Below are positions 17,134 to 38,734 of a stretch of DNA of 64,000 nucleotides, one piece after another. Position numbers and translations under genes: made by a program. This DNA is from Candidatus Rokuibacteriota bacterium (GTDB taxonomy: Bacteria; Methylomirabilota; Methylomirabilia; Rokubacteriales; CSP1-6): contig JACPIQ010000012.1 of NCBI GenBank assembly GCA_016188005.1, positions 15,224-79,223 of the forward strand, read 5' to 3'. The notes under the pieces are model-generated. The model saw only the letters and a list, made by a program, of their open reading frames with translations. It had not been told where the DNA came from and searched no databases. The first letter of the stretch is position 1. Every line of letters starts with the position of its first letter.

Positions 17134-18138
17134 TCAGCCGATCCCGACGCGGATCTCGCGCAGCGCCGCGCCCTCCCGGCCTGCCGCGCGGGCGAGGCCG
17201 GTCCCGGCGCGGGCGGGCCGCGGCTCGTACAATGCGAGCGCCGTGAGGATCCGGCGCTCCTGCCCGCGCCCGCGCGCCAGCGGGACGAGCAGGCCGGGAC
17301 CGGCCAGCTCGACCGTGGCGCCGGCGCGGAGGAGATGGCAGGCCAGCGAGGCGGCCTCGGACAGCCCCGTCTCGAGCCGCGCCGGATCCCGCGCGCCGGT
17401 CCCGTCGAGCACGATGCGCGTGTCCGTGCTGGTCTCGGCCTCGAGCTCGCGCACCGTGAGGGCCTGGGTCTTGGCGCTGCTCCGCCAGTGGATGAGCCGG
17501 GGATCGTCACCCGGCCGGTAGTCGCGGAGGTTGTGAAGATCGCTGCCGCGCCCGCGACGGCGCGTCTGCGCCGGACCGCTGCCGCCGATGCGCCGCAGCA
17601 GATGCGCGGGCACGGGAACGAGCGCGGGGTAGACCAGGACCTCCGCCCGGAGGATCACCTGCCCCGCCTTGAGGAAGACGCCGAAGGGGAACCGCGTGGT
17701 GACCCGGACTCCGGGGAGGCGGTGCCGCCCGCGCGCGGCGAGGGTCAGCTCCCAGGTCACCACGCGCTCGTCGCCGGCGGACAGCCGCGGCAGATAGATG
17801 ACGCGGCCGGGCCCGCCCTGCCCCAGGGCCTCGAGGCTGATCGAGTAGGAAGGGATCCGCCGCTTGCGGTTCGCCACGGTGGCGCCGACGAGCGCGGGGC
17901 GGCCCGCGTGGACCTCCTCCGGCAGGATGGCCGTCAGACGCAGCCCGCGCATCACGGCCTCGGACAGGATGCCGGAGACCACCACCAGCCCCAGCAGCAT
18001 CGAGGAGAGGAGGTAGAGGAGGTTGTTGCCGGTGTTGATGGCCGCCACGCCGAGGCCCATCGCGGCGAAGAGGCACCACCACCCGTCCCGGGTCGGCCAG
18101 ATGGTGCGTGCCGGTCTGAGGCGTCGCCAGAGATTCAC
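17134..18138 (-). CDS. DUF58-domain protein (MoxR-associated, VWA-like)
   Basis: 334 aa, GTG start (VNLWRRLRP...). DUF58 motif HWRSSAKTQALTVRELE. Its first ~45 codons are duplicated at 37637-37762 next to MoxR. Confidence 0.8.
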   Translation of the reverse strand: MNLWRRLRPARTIWPTRDGWWCLFAAMGLGVAAINTGNNLLYLLSSMLLGLVVVSGILSEAVMRGLRLTAILPEEVHAGRPALVGATVANRKRRIPSYSISLEALGQGGPGRVIYLPRLSAGDERVVTWELTLAARGRHRLPGVRVTTRFPFGVFLKAGQVILRAEVLVYPALVPVPAHLLRRIGGSGPAQTRRRGRGSDLHNLRDYRPGDDPRLIHWRSSAKTQALTVRELEAETSTDTRIVLDGTGARDPARLETGLSEAASLACHLLRAGATVELAGPGLLVPLARGRGQERRILTALALYEPRPARAGTGLARAAGREGAALREIRVGIG

Positions 18139-18156
18139 GAAAGGCTCTGTTCAGGT
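18027..18156. repeat. ~126-bp direct repeat, copy A (5' end of DUF58 gene), left junction of inserted segment
   Basis: About 96% identical to 37637-37762 (GAGGTTGTTGCC...CAGAGAYTCACGAAAG). Confidence 0.65.
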
Positions 18157-18189
18157 CGCTCGAGTGTCGGACACCTGTGGAGCTAGGAT

Positions 18190-18310
18190 ATCACCAAGCT
18201 GCTCGAACCGGCGAAGTGGGGCTAGTTCTACCTGTACGCCGTGCGCTACGTCTTCAGGCGGTACGTCGTCGGCTGGATGGTGGCCCGCGGCGAGAGTGCG
18301 CTCCTGGCCG
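18190..18310 (+). pseudogene. remnant of IS3/IS481-type transposase integrase-core (rve) domain
   Basis: Frame reads ...KWG*FYLYAVRYVFRRYVVGWMVARGESALLAERC, matching the conserved GW-YL-AVV-D-FSR-VVGW-...-L-V--AL motif of rve domains. It has an in-frame stop and lacks the N-terminal part. Confidence 0.4.
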
Positions 18311-18335
18311 AGCGATGCTCCTCTCTTCATTCGTC

Positions 18336-19301
18336 CTACGTGAGTTGCGGTCTCACCTCCACAGCAAAGCGTTCCAACGTCTCAGCCATCCCCTGAAATG
18401 AATCCATCTCAAGATCAAACAAGAAATGGCTCACTCCCGCCTCCCCATACCGTCTGATATCGTCTGCCACCTTCCCTACCGTACCGGTCAGTCGCTCCCC
18501 CCGATCGGCATCGCTGAATCTCAGCCTGATTCGCAGGCTTACTTCTATCGCCTCGGGATCCCGGCCGGCCGCCTCGACCAAGCGGCGAAGCTCAGCGACC
18601 TTGTCCTTCAGCTCCCCCGGATCCAGCCTGACTGGTTTCCGCATAGCCAAGGGATGCCATCCGTCTCCAAGTCGGGCGACCCTCTTCAGCGTCGACGTCG
18701 TCTGCCCCCCAATCCAGATCGGGGGGTGCGGCTTCTGGACCGGCTTTGGATAACACCCGACGCTCGAGAAGCTGTGATACTTCCCCTCGAAACTCGACAG
18801 TTCGCTCGTCCACAACTCCTTGAAGATCCGCACACACTCGTCTGAGTACGCGCCCCGGTCTCGAAAGAACGGCACTCCGAGCGCGGAAAACTCCTGCGCC
18901 CACCATCCAATCCCTACGCCCACAATCAAGCGGCCAGCCGACAGTACATCCATCGTCGCCAGCATCTTTGCAGTGATGACGGGATTCCGGTACGGAAGAA
19001 TGACCACGCTTGTCCCCAACCGGATCCTGCGAGTGCAGCCGGCCAGATATGCCAGCGACACGAGAGGCTCAAGAAAAGGCCGTTGCGGATGGAGGGGGTA
19101 CGTCCCATCCTCGGTATACGGGTAGCCCTCCGAGGTGGCGGGTATCACGACGTGGTCACTCACCCACACCGAATCAAACCCCAATGCTTCGCCCTTTTGC
19201 GCCAATGCGGTGATGGTGTGCGGGTTCACGATTTCATTGACGTGACGTTCTGACGCATCGAGCCTGGCCATTCGCGTAGGAAGGTCGAAGCCGAATTTCA
19301 T
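18336..19301 (-). CDS. LLM-class F420/flavin-dependent oxidoreductase
   Basis: Start MKFGFDLP. PHPPIWIGG and GDGWHP motifs typical of LLM F420-dependent enzymes. Confidence 0.8.
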   Translation of the reverse strand: MKFGFDLPTRMARLDASERHVNEIVNPHTITALAQKGEALGFDSVWVSDHVVIPATSEGYPYTEDGTYPLHPQRPFLEPLVSLAYLAGCTRRIRLGTSVVILPYRNPVITAKMLATMDVLSAGRLIVGVGIGWWAQEFSALGVPFFRDRGAYSDECVRIFKELWTSELSSFEGKYHSFSSVGCYPKPVQKPHPPIWIGGQTTSTLKRVARLGDGWHPLAMRKPVRLDPGELKDKVAELRRLVEAAGRDPEAIEVSLRIRLRFSDADRGERLTGTVGKVADDIRRYGEAGVSHFLFDLEMDSFQGMAETLERFAVEVRPQLT

Positions 19302-19606
19302 GGCGTTTCTCCTTCGGAAGGCAGCCACTTGGAGCGTGGCGCCGGAGCCACGTGTCGAGTAGGATCGCGTGCGATCCGCACCTTGCGCCATCGGTCCGCC
19401 AGAGTCTTGCGTCTTACCGCAACCCCTCACTCAGCCATGCGCACGGCAACCACTTCCCCTCGCGCGGCAAGCGCTGCGTACGGCTCTCCGCCTATCCCCC
19501 TGGTGGCCCACACTCCACCGCACCTTCAAGCAGTCAGCCACCACCGGCCCACGAACTCGGTCACGACCCTCCCACCCAACCGCGCGCTCCGTGGGTAACG
19601 CTCCGC

Positions 19607-20929
19607 CTATGGCCAGAACAGCTTTCTTGCAGCTGAGCGCAGTTCCGGTCGGAAGTCAGGATGGGCGATGTCTATCAACGCCTCGGCCCGCTCCCGTTGG
19701 GTCTTACCCTGAAGGCTCGCGGTGCCGAACTCCGTGACGACAAAATCCACGTAGTATCGAGGCGTCGTCACCACCGTACCCTCCGGCAGTTGGGGCACGA
19801 CCCGAGACACCTTGCCTCCCTGCGCCGTCGCCGGTAGCGCGATCACCGACCGTCCCCCCGGGGAGTTCACCGCGCCAATATTGAATGTCGTCTGTCCGCC
19901 AATGCCGCTGTATATGGACGGTCCAAGAGTGTGCGCTGCTACCTGGCCCGTGAGATCGATCGCCAGCGCCGTATTGACCGCGACCTGCCGGTGTTGCGCG
20001 GCAATCCTGCACAAATTGTTCGTGTACGTCACGCTGTACAGCTCGAACATCGGGTTCTCGTTGACAAACTGCAAATCGCTGGCCTCGACGAGCATGGCGC
20101 CCACCACCTTCCCCTGGTGCATGGACTTCCGTACTCCGTTAATCACACCTCGCTTTACCAGCTCGACCATGCTGCTCGTAATGACTTCCGAGTGCACGCC
20201 GAGATCATTCTTCTCACCGAGGAACGCGCAGACCGCTTCGGACACCGTTCCCACCCCGGTCTGAATGGTATCGCCATCTCGCACAAGCTCAGCGACCCCT
20301 TTCCCGATCACCTCCACCATCTGCTTCTCCTCTTCGCCAGGTGGCGGCGCCGTCGCCGTCACGTGCCCCTCAGTTTCGATCACGAGGTAGTCGATCTCAT
20401 CGACGTCAAGGAGGTTGTCGCCGCCTGTCCGGATGGTTCCCGGATCGACCTCTGCAATCGTGAGGCGCGCATTGAGAGCAAGCTCCTTCGAATACCAGCG
20501 GTGTACACCGAAGCTCACCTGTCCCTGCCCGTCGGGCGGGCCGACGACACACAAGAACACGTCAGGCACCCACCAACGGTCGCTACGCAACGGATCTTGC
20601 GTCCATGCCGGATACAGCGGGTAATCCACGGGCAGGAAGTCGACCAGACGCGCCTTCATCCCAGGTCGGTTGTACCCGCTGATATACTCGGACACCGGCT
20701 GAAACACTTCGGCCCAGCCCCCGTCGTTCCAGAAGGGCGCCTCATGGGCAGGGTACCCCTGCACGAGCTTCACGTGCTCGAGCCCATGCCCACGCCGAGC
20801 GAGAAGCGCCTTCATGATCGTGAGCGGAACCCGAGCGAGCGGCAACCGCACCACCTGTCCATTCCCGACCAACGATGCCGCCTGTTCGGCCGAGATGATC
20901 TTCTTTGCGTAACGCTCCTGCCAATCCAT
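19607..20929 (-). CDS. acetyl-CoA hydrolase/transferase family protein (succinyl-CoA:acetate/4-hydroxybutyrate CoA-transferase-like)
   Basis: Start MDWQERYAKKIISAEQAASLV. N- and C-terminal AcetylCoA_hydro domains (GVGTVSEAV..., SGIGGQTTF). Confidence 0.8.
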   Translation of the reverse strand: MDWQERYAKKIISAEQAASLVGNGQVVRLPLARVPLTIMKALLARRGHGLEHVKLVQGYPAHEAPFWNDGGWAEVFQPVSEYISGYNRPGMKARLVDFLPVDYPLYPAWTQDPLRSDRWWVPDVFLCVVGPPDGQGQVSFGVHRWYSKELALNARLTIAEVDPGTIRTGGDNLLDVDEIDYLVIETEGHVTATAPPPGEEEKQMVEVIGKGVAELVRDGDTIQTGVGTVSEAVCAFLGEKNDLGVHSEVITSSMVELVKRGVINGVRKSMHQGKVVGAMLVEASDLQFVNENPMFELYSVTYTNNLCRIAAQHRQVAVNTALAIDLTGQVAAHTLGPSIYSGIGGQTTFNIGAVNSPGGRSVIALPATAQGGKVSRVVPQLPEGTVVTTPRYYVDFVVTEFGTASLQGKTQRERAEALIDIAHPDFRPELRSAARKLFWP

Positions 20930-20958
20930 GACACTCCCTCCTGGCCAGCGCGCTCGCG

Positions 20959-22242
20959 CTAACGAACTCCCAGCGCCGCCGGTACCACGGTCGTAATCGT
21001 TGGGACAAAGATCAGGATGCCCAACCCCAGAAGCAACACAAGAAGAAAGGGGACCATCCCCCTGCTCACCTTGTCGATACTCACCTGCCCCACGGCGCAT
21101 CCAACAATGAGACCAACGCCGGCCGGAGGCACGAAGAGACCGATCCCGACCGCGGCGATCACTACAATCCCGTAATGGAGCGGGTTGATGCCCAGCTCTT
21201 CAACCACCGGAAGGAAGATCGGAACAAAAATCATCATGGCCGGAATCCCTTCGAGCAACGACCCGATGAACACGAAGACCAGGGACGTTACCAGCAGGAA
21301 GAACCACGGCCCCGACGACACCCCGGCGATGGCCCGGACGATGATCTGTGGGAGGTGTTGCACCGCCAAGAGGTACGACAGCACCGAGGCGGCTCCGATC
21401 AGCAGCATGATCACTCCCGTGTTCACCCCCGTATCAAGGAGGGCGTGCCACAGATCCCGAACCGTGATTGTCCGGTACACCGCCACTCCGAACACCAGGA
21501 CGTACAGTACCGCCACCGCTCCAGCCTCCGTCGGCGTGAAGACCCCACCCAGGATGCCGCCAAACATGATGACCGGGAGCCCCAGGGGCACCGCGGCTCC
21601 GGAAGCGGCCCTCAAGAACTCCCGCCACGTCGCCCGATCCTCTCGCGCAACGTCCAGTCTCCGCGCCTGCACGTAGACGAGGCCCATGATCAACACGGCG
21701 AGCACGGCCGCCGGAAGGAATCCCGCGAAGAACAACGCCGCCACAGACAACGACATCAGCTCGCCGAGGATGATCATGTTGATGCAGGGCGGGATCAGGA
21801 TCCCCATGGCAGACGCCGCCGAGATGATCGCGACCGAGTGCGGCCGCGCGTATCCTGCCCTCTGCATGGATGGGAGCAACATCGAAGATATGGCTGAGAC
21901 GTCCGCAACCGTCGATCCCGATATTCCCGAAAAGAACATCTCCGCCACGACCACGGCCATCCCGAGCCCACCGCGCAAGTGAGCCACGAGCGCCCGCGCC
22001 AGTGTCAACAGACGATGCGCGATTCCGCTCATCTCCATCAGCGTCCCCGCCAGGATGAAGAACGGAATGGCCAAGAGCACGAAGGAGTCACTTGCCGCTA
22101 CCATCCGACCGGGAATGAGCAGGAGCGGCACCGTCCCCGTCAGGAAGATCGCGATGACGGCGGCCACCCCCATCGTGAAGGCTATGGGGACTCCTAAGAC
22201 GAGCAGCATGACGAACACCACTCCCAGGAGCAGAAGGGTCAC
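20959..22242 (-). CDS. dctM: TRAP transporter large permease (DctM)
   Basis: 427 aa, ~12 TM, typical DctM N-terminus MTLLLLGVVFVMLLVLGVPIAFTMG. Confidence 0.85.
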   Translation of the reverse strand: MTLLLLGVVFVMLLVLGVPIAFTMGVAAVIAIFLTGTVPLLLIPGRMVAASDSFVLLAIPFFILAGTLMEMSGIAHRLLTLARALVAHLRGGLGMAVVVAEMFFSGISGSTVADVSAISSMLLPSMQRAGYARPHSVAIISAASAMGILIPPCINMIILGELMSLSVAALFFAGFLPAAVLAVLIMGLVYVQARRLDVAREDRATWREFLRAASGAAVPLGLPVIMFGGILGGVFTPTEAGAVAVLYVLVFGVAVYRTITVRDLWHALLDTGVNTGVIMLLIGAASVLSYLLAVQHLPQIIVRAIAGVSSGPWFFLLVTSLVFVFIGSLLEGIPAMMIFVPIFLPVVEELGINPLHYGIVVIAAVGIGLFVPPAGVGLIVGCAVGQVSIDKVSRGMVPFLLVLLLGLGILIFVPTITTVVPAALGVR

Positions 22243-22245
22243 TCG

Positions 22246-22707
22246 TTACGCCTCTCTCGCCGCCCGCATCCTCGCCACCACCCCGTAGGCTCTATAGCAT
22301 ACGTACCCAACCATGAGCCCGCCCGACACTGGAACAGCCAGATACTGCCAGCCGATCGAGATTCCCAATCCAGTGAATACCTGCCTGAAAGCGATCTTCG
22401 TCGCCGGAATTCCCTGCATCACCAGCACGGTGGCGAACACCAGCACAAACAGCTCAGTTGTGCCGGCAATCGCTTCCCGGACCCGAACAGGCAGCCGCGC
22501 CATGACCAGGTGGACGCCGAAGTGAGCACCGCGCTTGACCCCGACGGCGCCGCCGGTGAACGCGAGCCACACGAGCAGCATCTTCTGGAGCTCGTCGATC
22601 CCCGAGACCTGCAAGAGAAAGACGTACCTGAACAGTACGCCCGCGTTGGCCAGCACCACGAGCAGGGCGACCAACACGACGACGAGAGCTTCCGGCAGCT
22701 GTTCCAT
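22246..22707 (-). CDS. dctQ: TRAP transporter small permease (DctQ)
   Basis: 4-TM small protein immediately upstream of dctM. Start probably the internal MEQLPEAL (alternative 22794). Confidence 0.65.
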   Translation of the reverse strand: MEQLPEALVVVLVALLVVLANAGVLFRYVFLLQVSGIDELQKMLLVWLAFTGGAVGVKRGAHFGVHLVMARLPVRVREAIAGTTELFVLVFATVLVMQGIPATKIAFRQVFTGLGISIGWQYLAVPVSGGLMVGYVCYRAYGVVARMRAAREA

Positions 22708-22849
22708 CAGAATCCGCGCGCGTCCCCGCCTCACATCGTGACCCGAAGCGCCACTCTCACCCACCCCCATCCTCCGCGCCGTACGCGCCCCCAACCGCTC
22801 TAGAGCCGGCCCGCGCCCCGCCGGAGCCTTCCCCGCATTCCCGCACGCC

Positions 22850-23881
22850 TCACTTGCCAGCCTTCCCGATCTCCTTCACGAGACCCATGTCAACCGTCTT
22901 CACCACTTCCGGTACCTCCCACACACCGACCCCTAGGCTCCTCCACCTGCTCCGCTCCGCTGGCGTCGGCGTGTATACCTTCACACCCTTGTCCACCAAG
23001 TACTTTCGAGAAGTCCGGACGTCGTCCTCGTCCAGCTTCGCCGCGTACTTCGCGGCCTGGTCGGCCTCCTCGGAAATCATCTTCTGCATATCCGCCGGCA
23101 ACGAGCTGAAGAAGGTTGGCTCAACCAGCACCACCCATGCGATCGCGTACAGGTCCAGGTCGAGAGCGTACCGGATCACCTCGTGGTGTTTGAACGGCAC
23201 CAGCCAATTCCACAGCAGCAACTCGCCATCCACGACACCCTGCTGTAATCCGCTGTACGTTTCTCCCCAGTCCACGAACGTCGGAAGCCCACCGAATGCC
23301 CTCACGATCGCCTGTTCGACCGGGGAGGTCGTGGTCCTGATCTTCAACCCCCGCACGTCCTCCGGCACCCGCACCGCCTTCTTCGACGTATAGAGCTGGC
23401 GAAATCCACCGATATCCTGATACCACAGCACCTTCAGCTTGGTGTCCCGCTCGATCTCCCTGTTCATCTTCGTCCCGATCGGGCCCCACAGCACCTCGTG
23501 AAGGTGCCCTCTATCCGTGAACAAGAAGGGCAGATCGAGCACGTTCAGCGTCTTCTGGAACGCGGCAAAGTTCCCGTTCGACACTGCCGCCATCTCCAGT
23601 ACCTTGCTCTGCATGGCCTCGACCGCCGCCCTGGGTCCGTACAATGAATTGCTCGGATACACCTCGACGACTATTCTCCCGCCCGACCGCTCCTTGACCC
23701 TGTCCGCAAACCGCTGCAACACGACACCGGACGCCTGTTTCGCTGCGGCCGGCGAAGCCAGCTTGATCGTTATCGGCTTCTGGGCGAAAACGTCTCGCGG
23801 ACCCAGAAGCGCGCCCATCGTCACGAACACCGCAAACAGCACGCAGAATCCCCGCCTAAGCCCCAAGCGTTCAGTCGTCAT
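22850..23881 (-). CDS. dctP: TRAP transporter solute-binding protein (DctP family)
   Basis: Signal peptide, DctP-family length and motifs (e.g. DLPFLF). Confidence 0.85.
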   Translation of the reverse strand: MTTERLGLRRGFCVLFAVFVTMGALLGPRDVFAQKPITIKLASPAAAKQASGVVLQRFADRVKERSGGRIVVEVYPSNSLYGPRAAVEAMQSKVLEMAAVSNGNFAAFQKTLNVLDLPFLFTDRGHLHEVLWGPIGTKMNREIERDTKLKVLWYQDIGGFRQLYTSKKAVRVPEDVRGLKIRTTTSPVEQAIVRAFGGLPTFVDWGETYSGLQQGVVDGELLLWNWLVPFKHHEVIRYALDLDLYAIAWVVLVEPTFFSSLPADMQKMISEEADQAAKYAAKLDEDDVRTSRKYLVDKGVKVYTPTPAERSRWRSLGVGVWEVPEVVKTVDMGLVKEIGKAGK

Positions 23882-23937
23882 CTTCGCTCCTCCTTAGATA
23901 GCGCTCCGTCCAGCCGCCTGTCACCATTGCCCCGGGG

Positions 23938-25218
23938 TCATCTGAGAAGAACTTCGGGCAACACCGTCGTGAACCACGGAACCAGCGTCAGAACCACCAT
24001 TCCGACCGACAGCACTACGAGAAACGTCACCATCGGCTTGAACACCTCCTGCATGCTGACCTTGCCGATCGTGCACCCTGTCACCAGACCGGCGCCGATG
24101 GGAGGAAGGAACAACCCGATGCCGACCGAGGCCACCACGAGGGTCAGGAAATGCAGCACGTTGATTCCCAGCTTGTCCACTACGGGCAGCAGTATCGGGA
24201 CGAAAATCAGTGCTGCCGGAAGGCCCTCGAGCACGGCTCCGCCGAGCACGAAGATCAGATTCGCCAGTATCAGGAAGACCCACGGGGCAAACGACACCGA
24301 CACCATCACCTTCGCGGCGCTCTCCGGCACGTGTTCCACCGCGAGGAGGTACGAGAAAATCGTGGCGAGCGCCACCAACAGGAGCACGCTCCCGGAGATG
24401 ACAGCGCTGTCGGCCAGAATCCTCGGCAGATCGGCGATCCGCACCTCGCGATAGACGAACACACCGACCGCGAATGCGTACAAGACCGCGACCCCCGCGG
24501 CCTCGGTGGGCGTCGTCGCTCCACTTAGGATCCCGCCGAAGATGATCACGGGCATGCCCAGCGGGATGAGCGCGTCGATGAGGGCGTTCCCCAGCTCGCG
24601 CAGCGACGCCCGCCCCTCCGAAGGCAGCTGGTACCGGCGCGCTTGATAGAACAGCATGGCCATGATGACCAGCGCGAGCACCATCGCCGGAACGACCCCC
24701 GCGATGAACAGCGCGGCAACAGAGACGTTCGCGATGCCCGCCAGCACCACCATCAGGATGCATGGCGGGATCAGGATCCCCATCGCCGAGGCTGCAGCGA
24801 TGATGGCGACCGAATACGGGGCCGGGTATCCACTTCGCCGCATCGCAGGGAGCATCATCGCCGACATCGCCGAGACATCGGCGAGGGTGGACCCGGAAAT
24901 CCCGGAAAAGAACATCTCCGACACCACCACTCCCATCCCCAGCCCGCCCCGAACGTGACCGACCAGGGCCCGCGCGAGACGGACGAGTCGATGGGAGATA
25001 CCCCCGGTATCCATCAGGGCACCAGCCACGATGAACAACGGCACTGCTAGGAGCGTGAAAGAGTCCACACCGGACAGCGCTCTCTCGACGATCAACGAAA
25101 GCCTCAACGCCGGGTGGATGACGAGCACCACGAAGGACGTCACCCCCAGCGCAAAGGCCACCGGTATTCCCACAACGACACTCCCCGCAAACACCACGGT
25201 CAACACGAGCAGAATCAT
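23938..25218 (-). CDS. dctM: TRAP transporter large permease (DctM), second system
   Basis: Start MILLVLTVVFAGSVVVGIPVAFALG. Paralogue of 20959-22242. Confidence 0.85.
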   Translation of the reverse strand: MILLVLTVVFAGSVVVGIPVAFALGVTSFVVLVIHPALRLSLIVERALSGVDSFTLLAVPLFIVAGALMDTGGISHRLVRLARALVGHVRGGLGMGVVVSEMFFSGISGSTLADVSAMSAMMLPAMRRSGYPAPYSVAIIAAASAMGILIPPCILMVVLAGIANVSVAALFIAGVVPAMVLALVIMAMLFYQARRYQLPSEGRASLRELGNALIDALIPLGMPVIIFGGILSGATTPTEAAGVAVLYAFAVGVFVYREVRIADLPRILADSAVISGSVLLLVALATIFSYLLAVEHVPESAAKVMVSVSFAPWVFLILANLIFVLGGAVLEGLPAALIFVPILLPVVDKLGINVLHFLTLVVASVGIGLFLPPIGAGLVTGCTIGKVSMQEVFKPMVTFLVVLSVGMVVLTLVPWFTTVLPEVLLR

Positions 25219-25444
25219 TCCGTGCTCACCTCTTGCGTTCTCCATCTCACCGACAGGCTGCGGACGAAGACATGAACCAGACCGCTTCCAGGGATACGGC
25301 CGACGGGCTTCACCATGCCGCGCCGCGGTCCGCCGATCCGATGTCAGGGCCTGGGCTAGCTGGGCGCGCTAGGGTCACGCGGGCTGCGCCGCCGGGACCA
25401 GCCGTTCATCCGGGCGACGTGCCGAGTGACTCGATCCAGACGAG

Positions 25445-25909: not shown

Positions 25910-25924
25910 GTGCGCGCCGAGGGA

Positions 25925-30295: not shown

Positions 30296-30400
30296 TCACT
30301 GGCTCCTATCGGATCCGCCATTGCCGACCCCGACCGACGACTTCCCGGAACCCCTGGCCCGACAGCCTCACAAAGCCCACGGCCTTTCCGGTCGCAGCTT

Positions 30401-31429: not shown

Positions 31430-31432
31430 TCC

Positions 31433-31774
31433 CTAGCTCCCTAACCTCGTGAGGTGATCAGGATCCGGCGGTCCTTCCTCGGCGCCTTCGGCTCGATCAC
31501 CCTGTCCGTAATCAACCCGGTCAACCAGCGCCACGACTGCAGCATCGATCGGGATCCCCGCGTCGCCCACCACCTTCTGCGCGGTCATGCCCTGCACCAC
31601 CAGGACCATCTCCCCTCTTCCGCAGCCCAGAGCATCCATCGCCACAATGACCTCCCCGCGCTCTGCAGCCCCTCGACCAGAACCTACCAGCTCAACAACA
31701 AGGAACCTCAACCCCGTCAGCTTCTCCTGCTTGTGGGTCGCCCATACGGTCCCGATTACCCTTCCGAGGATCAT
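31433..31774 (-). CDS. BMC vertex protein (BMC-P, EutN/CcmL/PduN family)
   Basis: MILGRVIGTVWATHKQEKLTGLRFLVVE...VAMDALGCGRGEMVLVVQG...PIDAAVVALVD matches the PF03319 consensus. ~25-aa C-terminal tail. 4-nt overlap with the LLM gene start. Confidence 0.8.
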   Translation of the reverse strand: MILGRVIGTVWATHKQEKLTGLRFLVVELVGSGRGAAERGEVIVAMDALGCGRGEMVLVVQGMTAQKVVGDAGIPIDAAVVALVDRVDYGQGDRAEGAEEGPPDPDHLTRLGS

Positions 31775-31858
31775 GCGTGCTCTCTCCGGCGCCCTCTTTC
31801 TCTCGCCTCAGCCAGGAGTCCTGAAAGATTCCTCACTCGGACAGCGACACAAGAGATT

Positions 31859-32143
31859 TCATTCCCCTCCGCCCGTGAGACTCAGGAACTTGCTCAGGTC
31901 CGGTGTCGGATTCGCAATCACCGTCGCCCAGACGTCTCCTGATCGCTTGCCGGCCTCGACCCCGGCCTCAACTGCCACCCGCACAGCACCGACATCTCCG
32001 GCCACAGCGATGGCAAGTCGTCCGCCGCCAACCTTTTCGTACTTGATGACCTTCACGTTGGCGGCCTTCACCATCGCATCCGAGGCCTCGATGAGACCCA
32101 CATACCCCCTCGTTTCAACGATCCCCAGTGACATCTCTGCCAT
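31859..32143 (-). CDS. BMC hexamer shell protein (BMC-H, PF00936)
   Basis: MAEMSLGIVETRGYVGLIEASDAMVKAANVKVIKYEKVGGGRLAIAVAGDVGAVRVAVEAG is a near-textbook PduA/EutM-like BMC domain. Confidence 0.85.
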   Translation of the reverse strand: MAEMSLGIVETRGYVGLIEASDAMVKAANVKVIKYEKVGGGRLAIAVAGDVGAVRVAVEAGVEAGKRSGDVWATVIANPTPDLSKFLSLTGGGE

Positions 32144-32213
32144 CACTAAGCCTCCTGTTGGCACGAATGTGAATGCATGGCTCCCAGCAAGAGCAACACA
32201 GCACTATCATCGA

Positions 32214-33212
32214 CTACGCCGTCTGTTCCGGAATGGTCAACCTCCTTGCGCTCGAGGTGAGCGCAGGCCTGCGACCCTCGGCACGCAGGAGAAACGGTCC
32301 CTCAAGGTCTCTCTGAAGTTTGGTCAGCACATAGGTGCCGATCACCTCGCCAACCCGCTGAGCCCCTGCCGCCGCGGTGTCCACTGCGTGTCTCACCGCA
32401 GCGAGCTCTCCGCGTACGATCCCGGTCACCGCGCCTGACCCTGGGTTCTCATAGCCCACGAATGCCACTTTGGCGCTCTTCATCATGATGTCCAGCGCAC
32501 ACACGGCGGTCACCATGCCCTTGGTCTCGATGAACCCCAACGCATTCGGCACTGATGGCTCCGCAGCGTCAGCGGCTCGGGGCTGCTCACCCAGAAAGAA
32601 GGCCATGAGCTCGCGAGCAGGATTCGCGAGGACGGCGGACGCGACCACCTCTCCCACCTGACTGGCGGCCGCGACTCCCGCATCCACGGCGACTCGTGCG
32701 GCGCCGATATCCCCTACGACACACACAGCCACCATGCCTCCGAGAACCTTGTCATATCGCACCAGCGACACATTGGCCGCCTTGAGACACGCGTCCGTCG
32801 CAACGACCAGCGGCAGGAACCCGCAGGTCTCGATGAGACCCAGCGCATTCTTTCCACTCTGCCTTGATGCCTCCAGCGCCTCCGGCTCCAGAAATGCCCA
32901 CGACGACACTTCCAGAGCGGGCACCAGCGCTGACGCGCCCGCGACATCGGGCCCGCTCCTGCCCCCCGGCCCCGCGGTACTCACGCCTTCCTGTCTCTTC
33001 GGCTGCTGAAGCGTTGCCAGATCACTCGTGGCGCTCACCGACTCCCTGGCCCCTTCGGACGGAGGAGATTGTGAGGTGCGCGACTGCTTCCTCATCCCTT
33101 CTGCCATCGCCTCTCTTCCTCCCCTTTGCACCATCCCCACCGCCCCGCGTGTCCGCCCTCCTCGGTCCCGGCCAACCCTCACGCGTGCTACTCGGATCCC
33201 ACCCGCTGTCAC
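32214..33212 (-). CDS. tandem-BMC-domain shell protein (BMC-T) with ~100-aa low-complexity N-terminal extension
   Basis: Two consecutive BMC domains (ALGLIETCGFLPLVVATDACLKAANVSLVRYDKV...VVGDIGAARVAVDAG and ALGFIETKGMVTAVCALDIMMKSAKVAFVGYE...VRGELAAVRHAVD). True start uncertain. Confidence 0.7.
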   Translation of the reverse strand: MTAGGIRVARVRVGRDRGGRTRGAVGMVQRGGREAMAEGMRKQSRTSQSPPSEGARESVSATSDLATLQQPKRQEGVSTAGPGGRSGPDVAGASALVPALEVSSWAFLEPEALEASRQSGKNALGLIETCGFLPLVVATDACLKAANVSLVRYDKVLGGMVAVCVVGDIGAARVAVDAGVAAASQVGEVVASAVLANPARELMAFFLGEQPRAADAAEPSVPNALGFIETKGMVTAVCALDIMMKSAKVAFVGYENPGSGAVTGIVRGELAAVRHAVDTAAAGAQRVGEVIGTYVLTKLQRDLEGPFLLRAEGRRPALTSSARRLTIPEQTA

Positions 33213-33481
33213 TCCGTATTCAACAGCGCCGCCAGACCAGGGCTCGGGTTCGCGATCACCGCGGCCTTCGCCTCTCCGAGTGCCTCCGCGGCTCGGAGTC
33301 CAGCATCCACCGCAACCCGCACGGCACCGATGTCACCCACCACGCACACCGAGACAATCGCATCCCCCACCTTCTCGTATCTGAGAACCCTGACCCTTGC
33401 CGTCTTCACCATGGTGTCAACGGCTTGCGCCAGCGAAACAAATCCCACCGTCTCGATGATCCCGACAGATCCATGCGCCAT
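33209..33481 (-). CDS. BMC hexamer shell protein (BMC-H, PF00936), second
   Basis: MAHGSVGIIETVGFVSLAQAVDTMVKTARVRVLRYEKVGDAIVSVCVVGDIGAVRVAVDAG. Confidence 0.85.
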   Translation of the reverse strand: MAHGSVGIIETVGFVSLAQAVDTMVKTARVRVLRYEKVGDAIVSVCVVGDIGAVRVAVDAGLRAAEALGEAKAAVIANPSPGLAALLNTE

Positions 33482-33593
33482 GGCCGCACTCCACGAGCGT
33501 GATGCGCTCACTCTGGCGTTCTGTACCGCTGACTCGAGTCCTCTGGGACGCTCCCTCACTCCATCGAAGAGCCCGCTGTGACCGAATTGCCCC

Positions 33594-34247
33594 CTATGAC
33601 CCCCACTGGCCCTGTTGGTCCGAAAACAGTGATCGCTCTGTGAGTTCGCCCTCGGACGGTTTCACACGTGTGATCTCGCTGAAAGCCTGCGCGAAATCCA
33701 TCTGCGGGTTCGTGACCAAGTGTGCTCCTACCATCTCGCCGACCCGACTCGCCTCGTGGGCTCCAACATCTATCGCATGCTGCACTGAAGCGATGTCGCC
33801 CACCACACACGCCGTGACAAGGCCGTCCCCGACAAGTTCATGCCCGACGAAGACCACGGCGACCGACTTCATCATCGCGTCCAACGCGAGGGCCAGGGGC
33901 AGAAGGCCTCTCGTTTCCAAGAAGCCCATCGACGCGGACGGACCAATTCGCGCCAAGCCTTCACCGATCTCGGGCCTCGAATGAAGTCCCAATAGGGCAA
34001 GCACCGCGCGACTCGGCGCAGGCAACACCGCCACCGCAATGTGTTTTTCGGGAGCGACTTGGAAGGCAGCGTCCGCTGCGTATTTCACCGCGGAGAGTGG
34101 CCCCTCAACGCACACCATCACGAAGCCGCCCCCGATCTTGTGGTATCTTCCCACCTTGACCGGCGCGGTCTTCACCATCGTATCTACCACTCGTGCCAGC
34201 CCGACAAACCCTCGCGTCTCCACCAAGCCAAGAGAACCGTTCATCAT
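33594..34247 (-). CDS. tandem-BMC-domain shell protein (BMC-T), second
   Basis: Start ATGATGAAC (MMNGSLGLVETRGFVGL...) preceded by AAGGGAAGGG. Second BMC domain MGFLETRGLLPLALALDAMMKSVAVVFVGHE...VVGDIASVQHAIDVG. Confidence 0.8.
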   Translation of the reverse strand: MMNGSLGLVETRGFVGLARVVDTMVKTAPVKVGRYHKIGGGFVMVCVEGPLSAVKYAADAAFQVAPEKHIAVAVLPAPSRAVLALLGLHSRPEIGEGLARIGPSASMGFLETRGLLPLALALDAMMKSVAVVFVGHELVGDGLVTACVVGDIASVQHAIDVGAHEASRVGEMVGAHLVTNPQMDFAQAFSEITRVKPSEGELTERSLFSDQQGQWGS

Positions 34248-34276
34248 TCTTGACACCCTTCCTTACTGCATGAAAT

Positions 34277-34293
34277 CGCCCAACACGTGCCCG
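34277..34293 (-). promoter_or_regulatory. candidate sigma-54 (-24/-12) promoter of the BMC operon: GGGCACG-N4-GGGCG
   Basis: On the minus strand GGCACG (-24) is perfect and the GC of -12 is correctly spaced, but the -12 box is GGGC rather than TTGC. The predicted TSS is ~20 nt upstream of the BMC-T start and its Shine-Dalgarno sequence. Confidence 0.3.
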
Positions 34294-34387
34294 AATCTCC
34301 CGTCTCGATGTATCCGATCTAGCTCACCAACCGTGCCTCTTGTGAGAGATTTCGGAGTATTGATGCTCTATACTGACGAAGTAGCCC

Positions 34388-34419
34388 TTGACTTAGCATC
34401 CCCCGTGGGACTAAGTCAA
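34388..34419. promoter_or_regulatory. perfect 9-bp inverted repeat TTGACTTAG-N14-CTAAGTCAA (candidate operator/UAS) between BMC operon and Lrp gene
   Basis: Read directly in the sequence. Lies ~100 bp upstream of the sigma54-like element in a 670-bp divergent intergenic region of lower GC. Confidence 0.3.
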
Positions 34420-34929
34420 TAGGGAAATGCAACACATCGTCCGAGGTCTCGGAGCGTGAGATCGCCGGGACCTGTCAAACCCATGTGAGACTGTTGCCGG
34501 GCGGGGGGAATCGACGGTGCCGGGTCTCCGGGGCGGGTTTGACGGTCTCAGCACGGGGGGCGGGGATGATCCCAGGCTTTGGGGCGAGGGGAAGCGAGGG
34601 CGTAGATGTGCTCGCGTTTTCGGTCAATGGTGTACTGGCGCTCCCGGGCCAACTGGATCGCCAGACGAAGCTGACGAGGTCCACGCCAGTCAAGCCCAGG
34701 GGTGGTCACACCCCAGTGATGCCGCTTGAGACAGACGTGGCGAATTGATTCGCGTCGGTGAACCCGCACCGCTTTGGCGGCCGCTCACCTCGAGCGTCGC
34801 GACCAGGCCACACTTGTTCAGCGGCTGGTCCGCCGTCTCCGCGACCTCGCCTTCGCCGGGGCAATTCAGCCCGCAGCTTAGGCCCTCCCTGACCACACCC
34901 GCGCGGCCGGGTATGTCTTCTTAGCTCTC

Positions 34930-35997
34930 ATGTCACGCAGCCCGTCGCGCAACAACGAGCCTCAGCAGCTGGACCTGGAAATCATTGCCAGGCTCCAGGA
35001 CGACGCGAGGATGCCGTTCACGGCAATCGCCGAAGAACTTGGGCTGTCTGAATCCACCGTCCGAAAGCGCGTCGCCAGGCTCCAGAAGCTCGGAATCCTG
35101 CACTTCACTGCGTTCGCAGATCCCTTGCGCCTTGGTTTCCAGTACTGGGCCCAGATCCAGGTCATGCTCGATCTCGCGACCCTGGAAACCACGGCTGCCG
35201 AACTCGCGAAGTACCCTGAGATTTTCTTCGTCGGCATCACAGCTACTGAGTACAACCTTTTCCTCGCCGGTATCTTCCGCTCGAACGCAGACCTCTTGAA
35301 CTTTCTCACGAGCCGTTTATCCAAGATGCCGGGCTTTCGAACGTCCATCACCTCAAACGTCTTGAAGATCTTCAAACGTCGTGGACTATTCTTCGCGGAT
35401 CAGCCCCGCCGCGCGCGTCGGCGGAGCCGGATCCTGGCCGGCCCATCAGGTGCCGATAGCGACGATCCGGTGCGTGTTGGGTCGCAAGACAAGATGATCA
35501 TCGCGTTGCTGCAGGCTGACGGCCGAAAGTCCCTTTCGCGAGTCGCAGCTGAACTCGGTATCGCGGAGGCGACGGCACACCGGCGAGTCGCCCGCCTCCA
35601 ACAGCTTGGCATCCTGCATTTTGAGGCTTTCGCGGACCCGCTACGCCTCGGTTTTCAGTACTGTGCGCTGCTCTCTCTTTCGGTGACGCCGAATCGCGTG
35701 AGTGAGGTCGCCGCAAGACTCGCGACGTTTCCTCAGCTGTTCTTCGTCAGTGTGACCACGGGCCAATGCGACATCTTCGTCGCTGGAGCCTTCCGCTCTA
35801 ACGAGGATTTCCTTCGCTTTCTGACCCGCGACATTGCAAACATTCATTGGATCACAGGCGTGTCCGCCACGAACGTACTGAGACTCGTGAAGCGGCAGCT
35901 TCTTTACCCACTCTTGGCCGAATTCGAAGGCAGACGACCGGATTCCGAGAAGGCAGCGAGGCCACCCCGGGCTTCTTCGGCTAGACCGCGTGGCTGA
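34930..35997 (+). CDS. tandem-duplicated Lrp/AsnC-family transcriptional regulator (two HTH+RAM units in one polypeptide)
   Basis: Two repeats of ...LDLEIIARLQDDARMPFTAIAEELGLSESTVRKRVARLQKLGIL... / ...DKMIIALLQADGRKSLSRVAAELGIAEATAHRRVARLQQLGIL..., each followed by a RAM-like domain. Divergent from the BMC operon. Confidence 0.8.
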   Translation: MSRSPSRNNEPQQLDLEIIARLQDDARMPFTAIAEELGLSESTVRKRVARLQKLGILHFTAFADPLRLGFQYWAQIQVMLDLATLETTAAELAKYPEIFFVGITATEYNLFLAGIFRSNADLLNFLTSRLSKMPGFRTSITSNVLKIFKRRGLFFADQPRRARRRSRILAGPSGADSDDPVRVGSQDKMIIALLQADGRKSLSRVAAELGIAEATAHRRVARLQQLGILHFEAFADPLRLGFQYCALLSLSVTPNRVSEVAARLATFPQLFFVSVTTGQCDIFVAGAFRSNEDFLRFLTRDIANIHWITGVSATNVLRLVKRQLLYPLLAEFEGRRPDSEKAARPPRASSARPRG

Positions 35998-36256
35998 TCG
36001 GCGAAGGCATACTCCCTGGGCTGGCCATCGCGGCGCCAAAGGGAGTCTCGCGTGGTCCCAAGACCGCGCACCGTGAGAGGACCAGAACGCGACCATGTCC
36101 TCCGCAGCCACAGCTTCGGCCGCCGCACAACGCTCTTCGAGCAACCCCAGACCTCTGACGTCACCTCCTTCGGGCCGCGTTTGGCCTGACGCTCTTCCCC
36201 GCCACTTGCTCATCCATTTTACTCTCCTCATGTCTTCCTCAAACATGCGGAACTCC

Positions 36257-36440
36257 TCACCTACGTCCAGGATGCTCGTAGCTCCGCCGTCGACGACGAG
36301 ATTCGTGCCCGGCCGCGACCGTTTCAGCTGCCCTGAGATTCACATCGTTCACAGCCACCGCACAGCCTTCGCGCCCGAAGCGCAGAGCGGTCGCCCGACC
36401 TATTCCCGAGCCGCCCCCGGTGATGAGCGCCGTCAAGCAG
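36257..36440 (-). pseudogene. truncated short-chain dehydrogenase/reductase (SDR) N-terminal fragment
   Basis: ALITGGGSGIGRATALRFGREGCAVAVNDVNLRAAETVAAG (Rossmann TGxxxGIG) then divergence and a stop after ~60 codons. No start codon. Confidence 0.4.
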
Positions 36441-36605
36441 AGGTTCACTGCATCCCTCTTCGGCCTCGAGCGGGCGCGGACATCCGGCCCAACCGGGCAC
36501 GAACACTTGGACGCTCGCGCAGATCGCGGTCTATCGGACCTCGATCGACGGGCCCCCGTGCTCCCGCCCCACTTGCAACCTCTCCGTGACTGCTGGCGAC
36601 CGTCA

Positions 36606-37436
36606 TCAACGACGATCGACAAAATCAAGGATCGCCTTGGCCCAGGGTTCTGGATAGAGACGCGGCATCTCGCCGCCTCCCTCAACTCTGATCTCGACTA
36701 GCCTCGCCGCCGGCTGATCGCGCAGCCATTCATCCGAGGCGCTGCAAATATGGACGTCGTCGCTCGCGCGGATGAACAGAATTGGGACGCTGACGAGAGG
36801 TAGCTTCTTCGAGGCATCGTAGGAGAACTGCATAACGTAGGGCTCGAACCGTCGTGAACCAGTCTTGACTTGCTCGAGGAAAAACTCGCTCAGTAGATCG
36901 AGACGATCGGCCGGCAGCCGAGGCTTCCCCCAGTTCGTCTGCAGCCCCTCCCGCCACAGGTCAAGAAGGTGTGTTCCGTCTATCCGCGGCACCGGATCCG
37001 CCAATTTCGATGCCTTCGCATGAAGCTCCCGCAACATCGTCGTATCGCCGACGTATGCGAGACCTGACAAGATTACGCAGCTCACGATATCTGGGCGCTG
37101 CAGCGCAACTTCCATCGCAACATCCGCACCCGAATGGTGACCGGCAACCGCGGCACCCGAGATGCCAAGCTCCGCCAGTGCTGAGCAGATGGCAGAGCCA
37201 TGTTCCTCAAGGGTATACGGTTTCGGCGGTGCGTCGGAATCGCCGCACCCCATCCAATCAAATGCGATGACTCGATGGGATCGGCCGAGAAGGGGCATGA
37301 CGAGCCTGTAATCGAGGGAAGTGCGCAAGATTTGGTGGATCAGCACGATCGGGCTTCCCTCGCCCATCTCACGATAGAACATTTGGCCGTCCAATGTATC
37401 GACGAACCCGCGACGCATTCGAATGTCCGCCACCAC
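36606..37436 (-). CDS. alpha/beta-fold hydrolase
   Basis: 276 aa. Nucleophile elbow GHHSGA. HGW-like oxyanion region. C-terminal His. Confidence 0.8.
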   Translation of the reverse strand: MVADIRMRRGFVDTLDGQMFYREMGEGSPIVLIHQILRTSLDYRLVMPLLGRSHRVIAFDWMGCGDSDAPPKPYTLEEHGSAICSALAELGISGAAVAGHHSGADVAMEVALQRPDIVSCVILSGLAYVGDTTMLRELHAKASKLADPVPRIDGTHLLDLWREGLQTNWGKPRLPADRLDLLSEFFLEQVKTGSRRFEPYVMQFSYDASKKLPLVSVPILFIRASDDVHICSASDEWLRDQPAARLVEIRVEGGGEMPRLYPEPWAKAILDFVDRR

Positions 37437-37626
37437 ATCCCTCCGCGTGATGAAGCACCTATTGGCGCTTCCCGTCGTCAGCGGTTTTCGGACTCTGCGA
37501 GGCCGCGCGGGACTCGAAGGTCGCCGGCCAGTTCCCCCGAGTGCCCTGCATAGCCGCGGTCCGATTGTAGCGAACGCACCGGGCCAGAGTCCCGCTCTTT
37601 TGAGCCGCCCGCCGCCGGATCGCCTC

Positions 37627-37762
37627 TCACCGGCCGAGGTTGTTGCCCGTGTTGATGGCCGCCACGCCGAGGCCCATCGCGGCGAAGAGGCACCACCACC
37701 CGTCCCGGGTGGGCCAGATGGTGCGCGGCGGTCTGAGGCGTCGCCAGAGACTCACGAAAGCT
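37627..37762 (-). pseudogene. truncated 5' fragment of DUF58 gene (right junction of inserted segment), ~126-bp direct-repeat copy B
   Basis: Encodes VSLWRRLRPPRTIWPTRDGWWCLFAAMGLGVAAINTGNNLGR*, which is 96% DNA identity to the start of the intact DUF58 gene at 18027-18156 and then terminates. Confidence 0.6.
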
Positions 37763-37783
37763 GGGGCGTCCGCTCCCGCCCGG

Positions 37784-38734
37784 CTACCGGGGGACGGGAG
37801 TGTCCTGGACCAGCGCACGGATGATCGACTCGCCGTCCGCGCCGCCGCCGGCCTGGCCCAGCGCCGCCTTGACGATCACGCGGTGGGCCAGCGCCGGCAC
37901 CGCCAGCGCCTTCACGTCGTCGGGCACCAGATAGTCCCGCCCGTCGCAGAGCGCCCGGGCGCGCGCCGCGCGCAGGAGCGCGATCGAACCCCTCGGGCTG
38001 ACGCCGAGGCTCAGGAACGGCGAGGCGCGCGTGGCCGCCACCAGCGCCATCAGGTAGTCGAGCACCGACTCCTCGGCCCGCACACGCTCGGCCTCGGCCT
38101 GGAGCGCCAGCACCTCCCGTGCGCTCAGCACGGGCTCGACGCTCTCCTGCGGAGCGCCGCCCGCGCCCCGCAGAATCGCCTTCTCGTCGGGAGCGCCCGG
38201 GTAGCCGATCCGGATCCTGAGCAGGAAGCGGTCGAGCTGCGACTCGGGGAGCGGGAAGGTCCCCTCGTACTCGCGGGGGTTCTGGGTCGCCAGCACCATG
38301 AACGGGCGCGGCAGCGGGTAGGTGGCGTGGTCGAGGGAGACCTGCGCCTCGTTCATGGCCTCGAGGAGACTGGACTGGGTCTTGGGCGTGGTCCGGTTGA
38401 TCTCGTCGGCCAGCACGATGTTGGTGAAGAGCGGCCCGGGCTTGAAGACGAACTCGCCCTTCTCGGGCTGGTAGATGGAGACGCCGATGACATCCGAGGG
38501 GAGCATGTCGGAGGTGAACTGGATGCGCTGGAAGCCGCAGCCGATGGAGCGGGCCAGCGCCGCGCCGAGCGTCGTCTTGCCCACCCCGGGCACGTCCTCG
38601 ATGAGGAGGTGGCCGCGGGCCAGGAGTCCGGTCACCGCCAGGCGCACCACCTCGGGCTTGCCGACCAGGGCCCGGCCGACGCTCTCCTCGAGGCGGCGGA
38701 TCTGCTCCAGGGCACGCTGCATGGCCTCTTTCAT
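37784..38734 (-). CDS. MoxR-family AAA+ ATPase
   Basis: Start MKEAMQRALEQI. Walker A GVPGVGKTTLG. Walker B LLADEINR. MoxR-specific arrangement. Normally followed by DUF58 and transglutaminase genes. Confidence 0.9.
   Translation of the reverse strand: MKEAMQRALEQIRRLEESVGRALVGKPEVVRLAVTGLLARGHLLIEDVPGVGKTTLGAALARSIGCGFQRIQFTSDMLPSDVIGVSIYQPEKGEFVFKPGPLFTNIVLADEINRTTPKTQSSLLEAMNEAQVSLDHATYPLPRPFMVLATQNPREYEGTFPLPESQLDRFLLRIRIGYPGAPDEKAILRGAGGAPQESVEPVLSAREVLALQAEAERVRAEESVLDYLMALVAATRASPFLSLGVSPRGSIALLRAARARALCDGRDYLVPDDVKALAVPALAHRVIVKAALGQAGGGADGESIIRALVQDTPVPR

Follow-up and report, generated by a model that had tools for sequence, protein, structure and literature searches.

A 19.5-kb horizontally acquired, now decayed genomic island occupies positions 18175-37635 of the DNA stretch analyzed here (the window: 64 kb of the 81,659-bp contig JACPIQ010000012.1 from a Candidatus Rokuibacteriota bacterium), where it is inserted in the moxR-DUF58-tgpA operon. 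The island carries bacterial microcompartment (BMC) shell genes, putative cargo enzymes, and transporters, and is bracketed by direct repeats of the moxR/DUF58 junction. It is real, fairly ordinary in kind, and belongs to a known class. It shows that a 19.5-kb metabolic module has been gained, and probably lost again, without a recombinase of its own and with the split operon undamaged, in an uncultured soil and groundwater phylum.

All sequences compared come from short-read metagenome assemblies. We call the lineage of the window W; G is genome GWC2_70_16 (locus L089), and J is the lineage of assembly GCA_040961615.1, represented by a BMC region (L088), a right-end piece with a hydrolase gene and the terminal 200 nt of the island (L091), and a contig running from an insertion sequence (IS) remnant to tgpA (L095; JBFONE010133595). 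Other relatives used are K, L003, the L097-type genomes, and L112 (P0187). Logan contigs (k=31) from six sequencing runs within SRR12113390-432 are 100% identical to island segments.

A Foreign Insertion Splits a Conserved Operon

The operon lies on the minus strand. Its first gene encodes a MoxR AAA+ ATPase (37784-38734; NCBI MBI2525094; Pfam AAA_3, AAA_lid_2, and bpMoxR), its second an intact DUF58 protein of 334 amino acids (17134-18138; NCBI MBI2525073; Pfam DUF58, PF01882), and its last a TgpA-type transglutaminase (15084-17132; Pfam TgpA_N, Transglut_core, and DUF4129). The three genes have the domains expected of a MoxR-DUF58-TgpA operon, are co-oriented, and are adjacent in relatives, tgpA directly following DUF58 in about 75 of them; in W they are split by the island, and DUF58 is now 19.6 kb from moxR. 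The first-pass annotation, made from the sequence alone, had described a full-length DUF58 gene and its transglutaminase partner 19.5 kb away from moxR, and both are present as described.

It had also proposed that an insertion splits the operon, and more than 95 related loci with moxR-DUF58-tgpA uninterrupted, including that of G, bear this out. These empty sites comprise 78 genome loci from a MoxR scan, 16 JGI metagenome contigs retrieved by a pattern from the repeat core, L089, and L112. The scan returned 80 loci, mostly from metagenome-assembled genomes (MAGs) of Rokubacteria/Methylomirabilota; a same-strand, full-length DUF58 gene follows moxR in all 78 of those that extend past moxR (then tgpA in nearly all), and island markers are absent from every one of the 78. 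Many share the outer synteny polysaccharide deacetylase(-)-moxR-DUF58-tgpA-CoA-binding(-)-cob(I)alamin adenosyltransferase. Against the more than 95 empty sites stand two occupied lineages, J being the single exception among the relatives examined.

The closest relative, G, has flanks 92–93% identical to W at the nucleotide level and an empty site. It aligns unbroken through moxR and the right repeat copy (to 37636) and again through the left copy and DUF58-tgpA; both alignments draw on a single stretch of 122 nt in G, where the repeated segment occurs once. All 16 JGI loci are empty and contain the repeated segment once, at no more than 93% identity, and L112 is also empty, with moxR followed by a full-length DUF58 gene. 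Among P0187/L112 (89%) and the 16 JGI loci (≤93%) there is no empty-site relative closer to W than G.

The island also differs in composition from its surroundings. Its GC content is 0.618, compared to 0.728 and 0.711 in the flanks, and its mean GC at third codon positions (GC3) is 0.75 as opposed to 0.91; tetranucleotide correlations with the flanks are 0.76–0.89 for the island and 0.95–0.99 otherwise, and sharp GC steps fall within about 200 nt of each junction. Deviant composition, presence or absence at a conserved locus, and flanking repeats accompanied by a mobility-gene remnant are the generic features of a genomic island, and all are found here.

The mobility-gene remnant is the leftmost island sequence, an IS3-family (rve) transposase pseudogene with two in-frame stops on the plus strand (18175-18318; Pfam rve, E=1.6e-4, positions 7–54 of 102) that had been reported at this end and is 60–67% identical to IS3-family transposases by tblastn. 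Its 48-residue rve fragment is the only recombinase-like sequence; in agreement with the first-pass annotation, Pfam scans of all island open reading frames (ORFs) and all large ORFs of the 64-kb window detected no integrase or recombinase, and no conjugation, mobilization, relaxase, or phage structural genes were found in either. The window contains no tRNA or Rfam family, and a tRNA or RNA integration target was rejected. No terminal inverted repeats or extra direct repeats occur at the island ends, where matches of up to 17 nt are at chance level. A further rve remnant was suspected at the right end, where the peptide '...RYNRTAAMQGTRGNWPATFE...', which continues the frame of the truncated DUF58, resembled an IS3 C-terminus; this too was rejected, as it has neither a Pfam match nor a meaningful tblastn match, and a plasmid origin was discarded after a megablast of the whole island against 72,556 plasmids gave nothing.

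The Direct Repeats Contain the moxR/DUF58 Junction

The previously noted repeat of 126 bp and ~96% identity is reproduced on re-alignment as 125 ungapped nucleotides with five mismatches (96.0% identity) between 18019-18143 and 37636-37760. The right copy lies approximately where it had been placed, while the left copy, put at 18027-18156, was off by about 10 nt. The mismatches, at 18031, 18094, 18109, 18111, and 18134, leave an exact core of 62 nt, and the window holds no other long direct repeat of comparable kind. On the minus strand both copies consist of 5 nt upstream of a GTG start followed by DUF58 codons 1–40. The left, distal copy runs on into the intact 334-residue DUF58 gene, which begins at the GTG also used by its 92% identical counterpart in GWC2_70_16, and then into the transglutaminase gene. 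The right, moxR-proximal copy is a truncated DUF58 pseudogene with its GTG at 37755 and its stop at 37627-37629, reading ...NTGNNL-GR-stop; it is the stop-ended fragment that had been recognized after moxR, with 42 codons rather than about 45. Alignments of relatives from moxR into DUF58 end exactly at 37636/37637.

The sequence beyond the repeats had been called unrelated. This is true of the two copies compared with each other. Past the left copy, however, lie 31 nt (18144-18174, minus strand) that match the spacer found between moxR and DUF58 in relatives; they lengthen the left duplicate to ~156 nt, and their upstream end is the left junction. In the anchored register 18–19 of the 31 positions are identical to the G and J spacers (p ~5e-5 to 2e-4), a match equaled by only 2–8 of 38,860 island 31-mers. 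At its start is a GTGTC motif, which G, J, and K have ~10 nt downstream of the moxR stop. The native spacer beside the right copy (37761-37783, minus strand) is shorter than that of G by 14 nt and begins, like that of L097-type relatives, with TAGCCGGGCGG; the spacers beside the two W copies are different alleles, G-like on the left and L097-type on the right.

Among relatives (L003-L112) this spacer is hypervariable in both length and sequence, with flanking coding DNA 80–93% identical. In some lineages (L097-type relatives and G) it reads as an open upstream continuation of DUF58, in frame and beginning at a GTG some 10 nt past the moxR stop, and DUF58 may therefore have its true start at different positions in different lineages.

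A Second, Diverged Island in Lineage J

The J island pieces L088 and L091 are 91–92% identical to W, corresponding to ~8% divergence. At the right end L091 starts ATCTC/GGCCGG (the slash marks the junction), which is the same right junction as in W; the five extra bases are those of the AAT-CTC codons of J/G-type DUF58. At the left end L095 reads, in order, an IS3 remnant, the last 133 nt of moxR, the spacer, an intact DUF58 gene, and the start of tgpA, and from position 382 onward it is 97.6% identical to the empty-site locus of G. Its IS3 remnant is 88.6% identical to 18175-18314 and continues ~36 amino acids further at the N-terminus ('...VHRPNDLWS*NIT...'). The duplicate in J would thus be ~295 nt long, running 174 nt further upstream, into moxR.

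The left boundary lies ~10 nt after the moxR stop in W and 133 nt inside moxR in J, and in both lineages it abuts a 5'-truncated IS3 pseudogene. The two IS3 remnants (L095 1-385 compared to 18175-18318) have decayed differently, the W remnant having acquired two in-frame stops and the J remnant a stop and a frameshift; such independent decay fits a long stay of the island in both lineages.

The first-pass annotation had suggested integration into the 5' end of DUF58 by an element bringing its own copy of that gene segment, a suggestion that, as stated, is not supported by the comparison with J. Because the J duplicate starts inside moxR and the W left copy enters the spacer, we read the repeats as a duplicated host segment across the moxR/DUF58 junction, and as neither a tailored gene-end copy nor an element terminus.

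History of the Island

Synonymous divergence (dS) between the W and J islands is 0.15–0.26 across four genes, and that of the host genes DUF58, tgpA, moxR, and the deacetylase (W compared to J or G) is 0.14–0.19. As the two ranges are similar, the island has accompanied these hosts for roughly the whole time since W and J separated. The ratio of nonsynonymous to synonymous divergence (dN/dS) of the four island genes, 0.08–0.25, indicates purifying selection on the cargo. Between J and G, dS is only 0.036–0.040, which makes the empty-site genome G the sister of the carrier J; its position among carriers implies that the island was lost or gained through the repeats. Most simply, the insertion is old and was recently and precisely lost in G through recombination between the repeats. 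Recombination between direct repeats had been raised as an explanation for the arrangement as a whole; it is relevant to loss of the island, as the position of G beside J suggests, but not to its origin.

The repeat copies themselves have a different history. The W copies differ from each other at 5 of 125 sites and from J/G at 12–13 each. Polarization with G, J, K, and L003 assigns two private substitutions to the right copy and three to the left, while at least four W-derived substitutions (polarized with K and L003) are common to both W copies. With this many shared changes and only five differences, the W repeats were duplicated or homogenized after the W/J split, which points to gene conversion, or to excision and re-integration within the lineage. 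An attempt to locate a crossover point from the five mismatches was abandoned; none is readable, because the private changes show no switch pattern. Over the 125 nt, the J left copy matches G at every position, and in the part comprising truncated moxR and spacer the two differ at 4 of 172 nt. Being near-identical to G, this copy gives no age information.

Possible Mechanisms of Integration

Long host-derived direct repeats around islands are usually taken as the attachment (att) sites of a lost integrase. The duplicate in J, which begins inside the upstream gene, shows that such an interpretation can be mistaken and that ordinary homologous recombination suffices. The explanation we favor, to which we give about an even chance, is that a circular DNA with a captured host fragment integrated by a single, Campbell-type crossover. 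Such a circle would have carried the island together with the 3' end of moxR, the spacer, and DUF58 codons 1–40, beside the IS3 element, to which capture of the fragment was perhaps linked. One RecA-type crossover between the circle and the chromosomal copy of the fragment would duplicate it on both sides of the insert and leave moxR and DUF58 intact, 19.6 kb apart; both genes would survive because the duplicated fragment spans the gene junction. Later recombination between or with the repeats could then account for the co-divergence of island and host, the loss in a sister genome, and repeats more alike than the age of the island predicts. We infer the circular intermediate, the single crossover, the fragment capture, the repeat-mediated loss or homogenization, and the route of cell-to-cell transfer.

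In a systematic experiment, single crossovers of circles with the chromosome gave duplications of the homologous segment of 109–950 bp (PMC3240628). The duplicated segment here is host sequence, present once at the empty site in L089 and the 16 JGI loci. W has 40 codons of DUF58 after moxR and the spacer plus the full DUF58 gene after the island, and J has 133 nt of moxR followed by the full DUF58 gene, as a single crossover would leave them.

Several points weigh against this explanation. No circular form, excision product, replicon, or transfer function was seen, and no episomal contig was recovered, in data that consist entirely of short-read metagenome assemblies. Capture of a host fragment by the circle is speculative; the IS3 remnant is 5'-truncated in both lineages, and neither junction coincides with an IS end. 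In J the right junction rests on 5 nt and the moxR-proximal copy was not recovered. The different left boundaries in W and J require either a later ~250-bp deletion in W or independent events. Finally, the two W spacers are unalignable yet adjoin coding sequences that are 96% identical, an abrupt boundary that fits no model neatly.

A bolder version of single-crossover integration, possible but doubtful in our estimate, is that the island is a recombinase-less, homology-addressed mobile cassette, in which the 150–300-nt copy of the moxR/DUF58 junction acts as an address label for repeated RecA-dependent exit from and re-entry into Rokubacteria chromosomes. If so, transfer would occur by transformation or in trans, and host-like repeats as well as the mixture of carriers and empty sites among close relatives would be accounted for; the cassette would be spreading an uncatalogued microcompartment type of luciferase-like monooxygenase (LLM)-class oxidoreductases and amidohydrolases fed by tripartite ATP-independent periplasmic (TRAP) transporters.

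Among the competing explanations, a decayed site-specific element resembling a cis-mobilizable element (CIME) fares best, although we consider it unlikely. Here an integrase-bearing island would have recognized an attB in the 5' part of DUF58, and its attP, containing a look-alike of the gene start, would have restored the gene upon integration, and the integrase and transfer genes would have been lost later. Direct repeats do flank the whole foreign segment and the target gene is intact; two diverged island variants occupy the same locus, apparently with the same right junction; excision would account for the empty site in the sister genome of a carrier; and decay is evident in the IS3 and short-chain dehydrogenase remnants. 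There are also precedents, in SXT/R391 elements at the 5' end of prfC (PMC4344509) and in CIMEs that keep attL and attR without an integrase (PMC5704250). However, neither the island nor the rest of the 64 kb contains an integrase, excisionase, or relaxase gene or remnant, and there is no shorter identical core apart from the 62-nt stretch between mismatches. The repeat copies in W and J are specific to the host lineage and not to the element. The left boundary is not fixed, lying within moxR in J and 31 nt into the spacer in W, where att sites would share the same boundary; a later deletion in W could reconcile the two.

A still less probable explanation is illegitimate or one-sided-homology insertion of linear DNA, by homology-facilitated illegitimate recombination (HFIR) or end-joining, independently in W and J. 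The donor would already have had the island next to DUF58 codon 40 and would have passed on this right junction, and each insertion would have created its own left junction. This would explain the constant right and variable left junctions, the differing extents of the IS3 remnants, and W repeats younger than the W-J split, and a short microhomology (ATC; CGAC.AC) is present where the truncated IS3 meets the truncated moxR in J. HFIR, however, normally couples insertion with deletions in the recipient and with microhomologies of 3–10 bp, and in the same experiment duplications came from circle crossovers (PMC3240628). No clear microhomology is found at the W junction, and 19.5 kb is far above the typical HFIR product of ~1 kb. 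Moreover, island divergence equals host divergence, which is unexpected for independent recent acquisitions.

It is highly improbable that the arrangement is an assembly artefact, in which a separate molecule or the island of another organism was joined to a Rokubacteria contig through the 62-nt exact core. The source is a short-read MAG contig, k=31 Logan contigs cannot span the core and break inside the repeat, and a host flank gene was not found when looked up in the runs that hold the island. The core, however, is shorter than a read and can be resolved by read threading, and mismatches on either side of it tie each copy to its own flanks. Logan contig L001 (SRR12113422) covers the island from 27927 through its right junction with the repeat at 100% identity, stopping 30 nt into the core because a k=31 graph must break there, and L095, a contig from a different study, physically joins the island IS3 remnant to the truncated moxR, DUF58, and tgpA. 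It is because of this independent support for the junctions that we rate an artefact so low; a separate molecule would in any case still carry the host segment and would amount to the circular form of the same element. Transposition or a composite transposon is excluded, because there is a single truncated IS fragment at one end, there are no inverted repeats, and a duplication of 125–295 nt is far longer than the usual 2–15 bp.

Consequences for the Split Operon

In W, moxR retains its own upstream region, while DUF58 and tgpA lie downstream of 19.5 kb of almost wholly co-oriented island genes. Both are under purifying selection (dN/dS ~0.25–0.28, with ~0.27 for DUF58; for tgpA, 682 codons aligned with L089 give a dS of 0.18 and a dN of 0.046), and this constraint indicates that they are still expressed. 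A terminator scan found no terminator-like site between the last island gene and DUF58, which is weak evidence, and promoter and terminator scans at both junctions returned nothing and are uninformative. DUF58-tgpA is probably transcribed by read-through or from an island promoter.

Two relatives have unusual arrangements of this locus. In a Rokubacteria MAG (L019; CAWIZN010000073.1, 8190-19944) the whole deacetylase-moxR-DUF58-tgpA block is duplicated in tandem, and the second moxR copy gives split matches of ~60% identity, suggesting a decaying paralog. In a more distant relative (L104; WNEY01002942.1, ~1313-2956) the 130 nt upstream of the DUF58 start are unlike the 3' end of moxR, although the deacetylase is found at a distance of ~1.4 kb; either a rearrangement of the locus or strong divergence of moxR may be responsible.

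Cargo of the Island

The island encodes a complete set of shell proteins, all on the minus strand: a BMC-P (EutN/CcmL; 31433-31774), two BMC-H (31859-32143 and 33209-33481), and two proteins with two BMC domains, one of 297 amino acids (32214-33107) and one, a BMC-T, of 217 amino acids (33594-34247). These are followed by putative microcompartment cargo enzymes on the same strand, namely two LLM proteins (27369-28442 and 30401-31429) and two members of the Amidohydro_2 family (28459-29418 and 29429-30295). BMC-H, BMC-T, and BMC-P shell genes clustered with enzymes are what defines a microcompartment locus. The metabolosome core is lacking, as there is no aldehyde dehydrogenase (AldDH; pfam00171), phosphotransacylase, or alcohol dehydrogenase in the island. 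The BMC-T is rare: among 5.8 billion proteins it has five detectable relatives, namely itself, the J variant (90% identical), and three at 37–39% identity.

Neither pfam00296 (LLM) nor TRAP transporter genes occur in any of the 68 types of the 2021 BMC catalogue and its supplements, and pfam04909 (Amidohydro_2) occurs there only in AldDH-containing types. Set against these 68 types, the cargo locus looks uncatalogued, and unless it belongs to the BUF types, which also lack AldDH, it possibly represents a new BMC type without AldDH. Its interest lies in the combination of a complete shell set with luciferase-like (partly F420-type) oxidoreductases, Amidohydro_2 proteins, a CoA-transferase, and two TRAP transporters, under selection in two lineages.

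The remaining island genes lie on either side of this locus. Next to the IS3 remnant is an F420-dependent LLM-class oxidoreductase (18336-19430, minus strand; Pfam Bac_luciferase; TIGR03619 at 269 bits, above the cutoff), followed by a CoA-transferase of the acetyl-CoA hydrolase/transferase family (19607-21100, minus strand, as the longest ORF; the true start is probably near 20950). Domain hits identify two complete TRAP transporter sets in the order DctM-DctQ-DctP twice (20959-26935, minus strand), whose paralogy is also seen as repeat family D1. Beyond the shell genes, a tandem AsnC/Lrp-type regulator (34930-35997) is the only plus-strand gene of the island. The truncated short-chain dehydrogenase gene that had been noted is confirmed as an N-terminal fragment, a pseudogene at ~36299-36433 (minus strand; adh_short, E=4.5e-8, positions 2–46 of 195). 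The rightmost gene encodes an alpha/beta hydrolase (36606-37436, minus strand; NCBI MBI2525093) with 95% amino acid identity to the J copy, and the island ends in 199 non-coding nucleotides (37437-37635; GC 0.66–0.71) that reach the right junction, are conserved in the J variant up to the same junction, and have no match to any host locus. ORFs at 26952-27326 (124 amino acids), 35641-36246, 36095-36589, and 34485-34748 have no family match and look spurious. A donor was not found, the nearest non-island homologs occurring in unrelated contexts (74% identity for the right-end hydrolase, in L092; 39% for the BMC-T, in L090).

The host flanks encode LLM-class oxidoreductases of their own (8574-9833 and 40417-42222), 30–38% identical to those of the island, and the right flank contains a further TRAP DctM (46853-48811) as well as UbiD and AMP-ligase genes. 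The island thus adds paralogous functions to a genome already rich in such genes. A 45-nt repeat family (GCAAGACCGCACTCCTGCCAATGTCGGAATGCAAGACCTGACCCC) occurs in host intergenic DNA on both sides of the island (7839-7883, 8524-8568, and 39888-39932), with 87% and 62% identity to the reference copy and no Rfam match.

Comparison with Known Systems

In its cargo, the island resembles the transferable BMC modules described by Sutter et al. 2021 (PMC8217296), having compact BMC-H, BMC-T, and BMC-P genes with enzymes, a regulator, and transporters on DNA of foreign composition. It is unlike the BMC types of the same study in that the W locus has no aldehyde dehydrogenase, phosphotransacylase, or known signature enzyme.

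As to how such DNA arrives, HFIR (PMC3240628) resembles the case of the island in requiring homology on a single side, in leaving a short microhomology where the other side is joined, as seen in J, and in being able to import foreign DNA that lacks mobile-element functions, but its products are typically ~1-kb insertions accompanied by deletions, whereas W has a 19.5-kb insert and a duplication. SXT (PMC4344509) likewise inserts at the 5' end of a still-functional protein gene, which is split from its native upstream region; it relies on a tyrosine integrase with a short att core and encodes conjugation functions, and the W island has none of these. CIMEs (PMC5704250) are similar in being cargo islands with flanking direct repeats, no integrase or transfer genes, and signs of decay. 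Their repeats, however, are att sites of a site-specific recombinase, with constant boundaries and most often located at the 3' end of a tRNA or protein gene, while the boundaries in W and J vary, the duplicate reaches into the gene upstream, and no integrase or remnant of one is seen.

Campbell-type insertion-duplication, as obtained with suicide or conjugated plasmids (PMC3240628), differs in that W carries a natural 19.5-kb metabolic island with repeats diverged by 4% and unalignable spacers, and the circle is a matter of inference. In other respects it is similar: the insert is bracketed by a direct duplication of a segment that is single at the empty site, the W and J duplicates of ~156–295 nt fall within the experimental range of 109–950 bp, and each copy yields one intact and one truncated gene, so that both genes survive. 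It requires no recombinase of the element, and its reversal between the repeats restores a perfect empty site.

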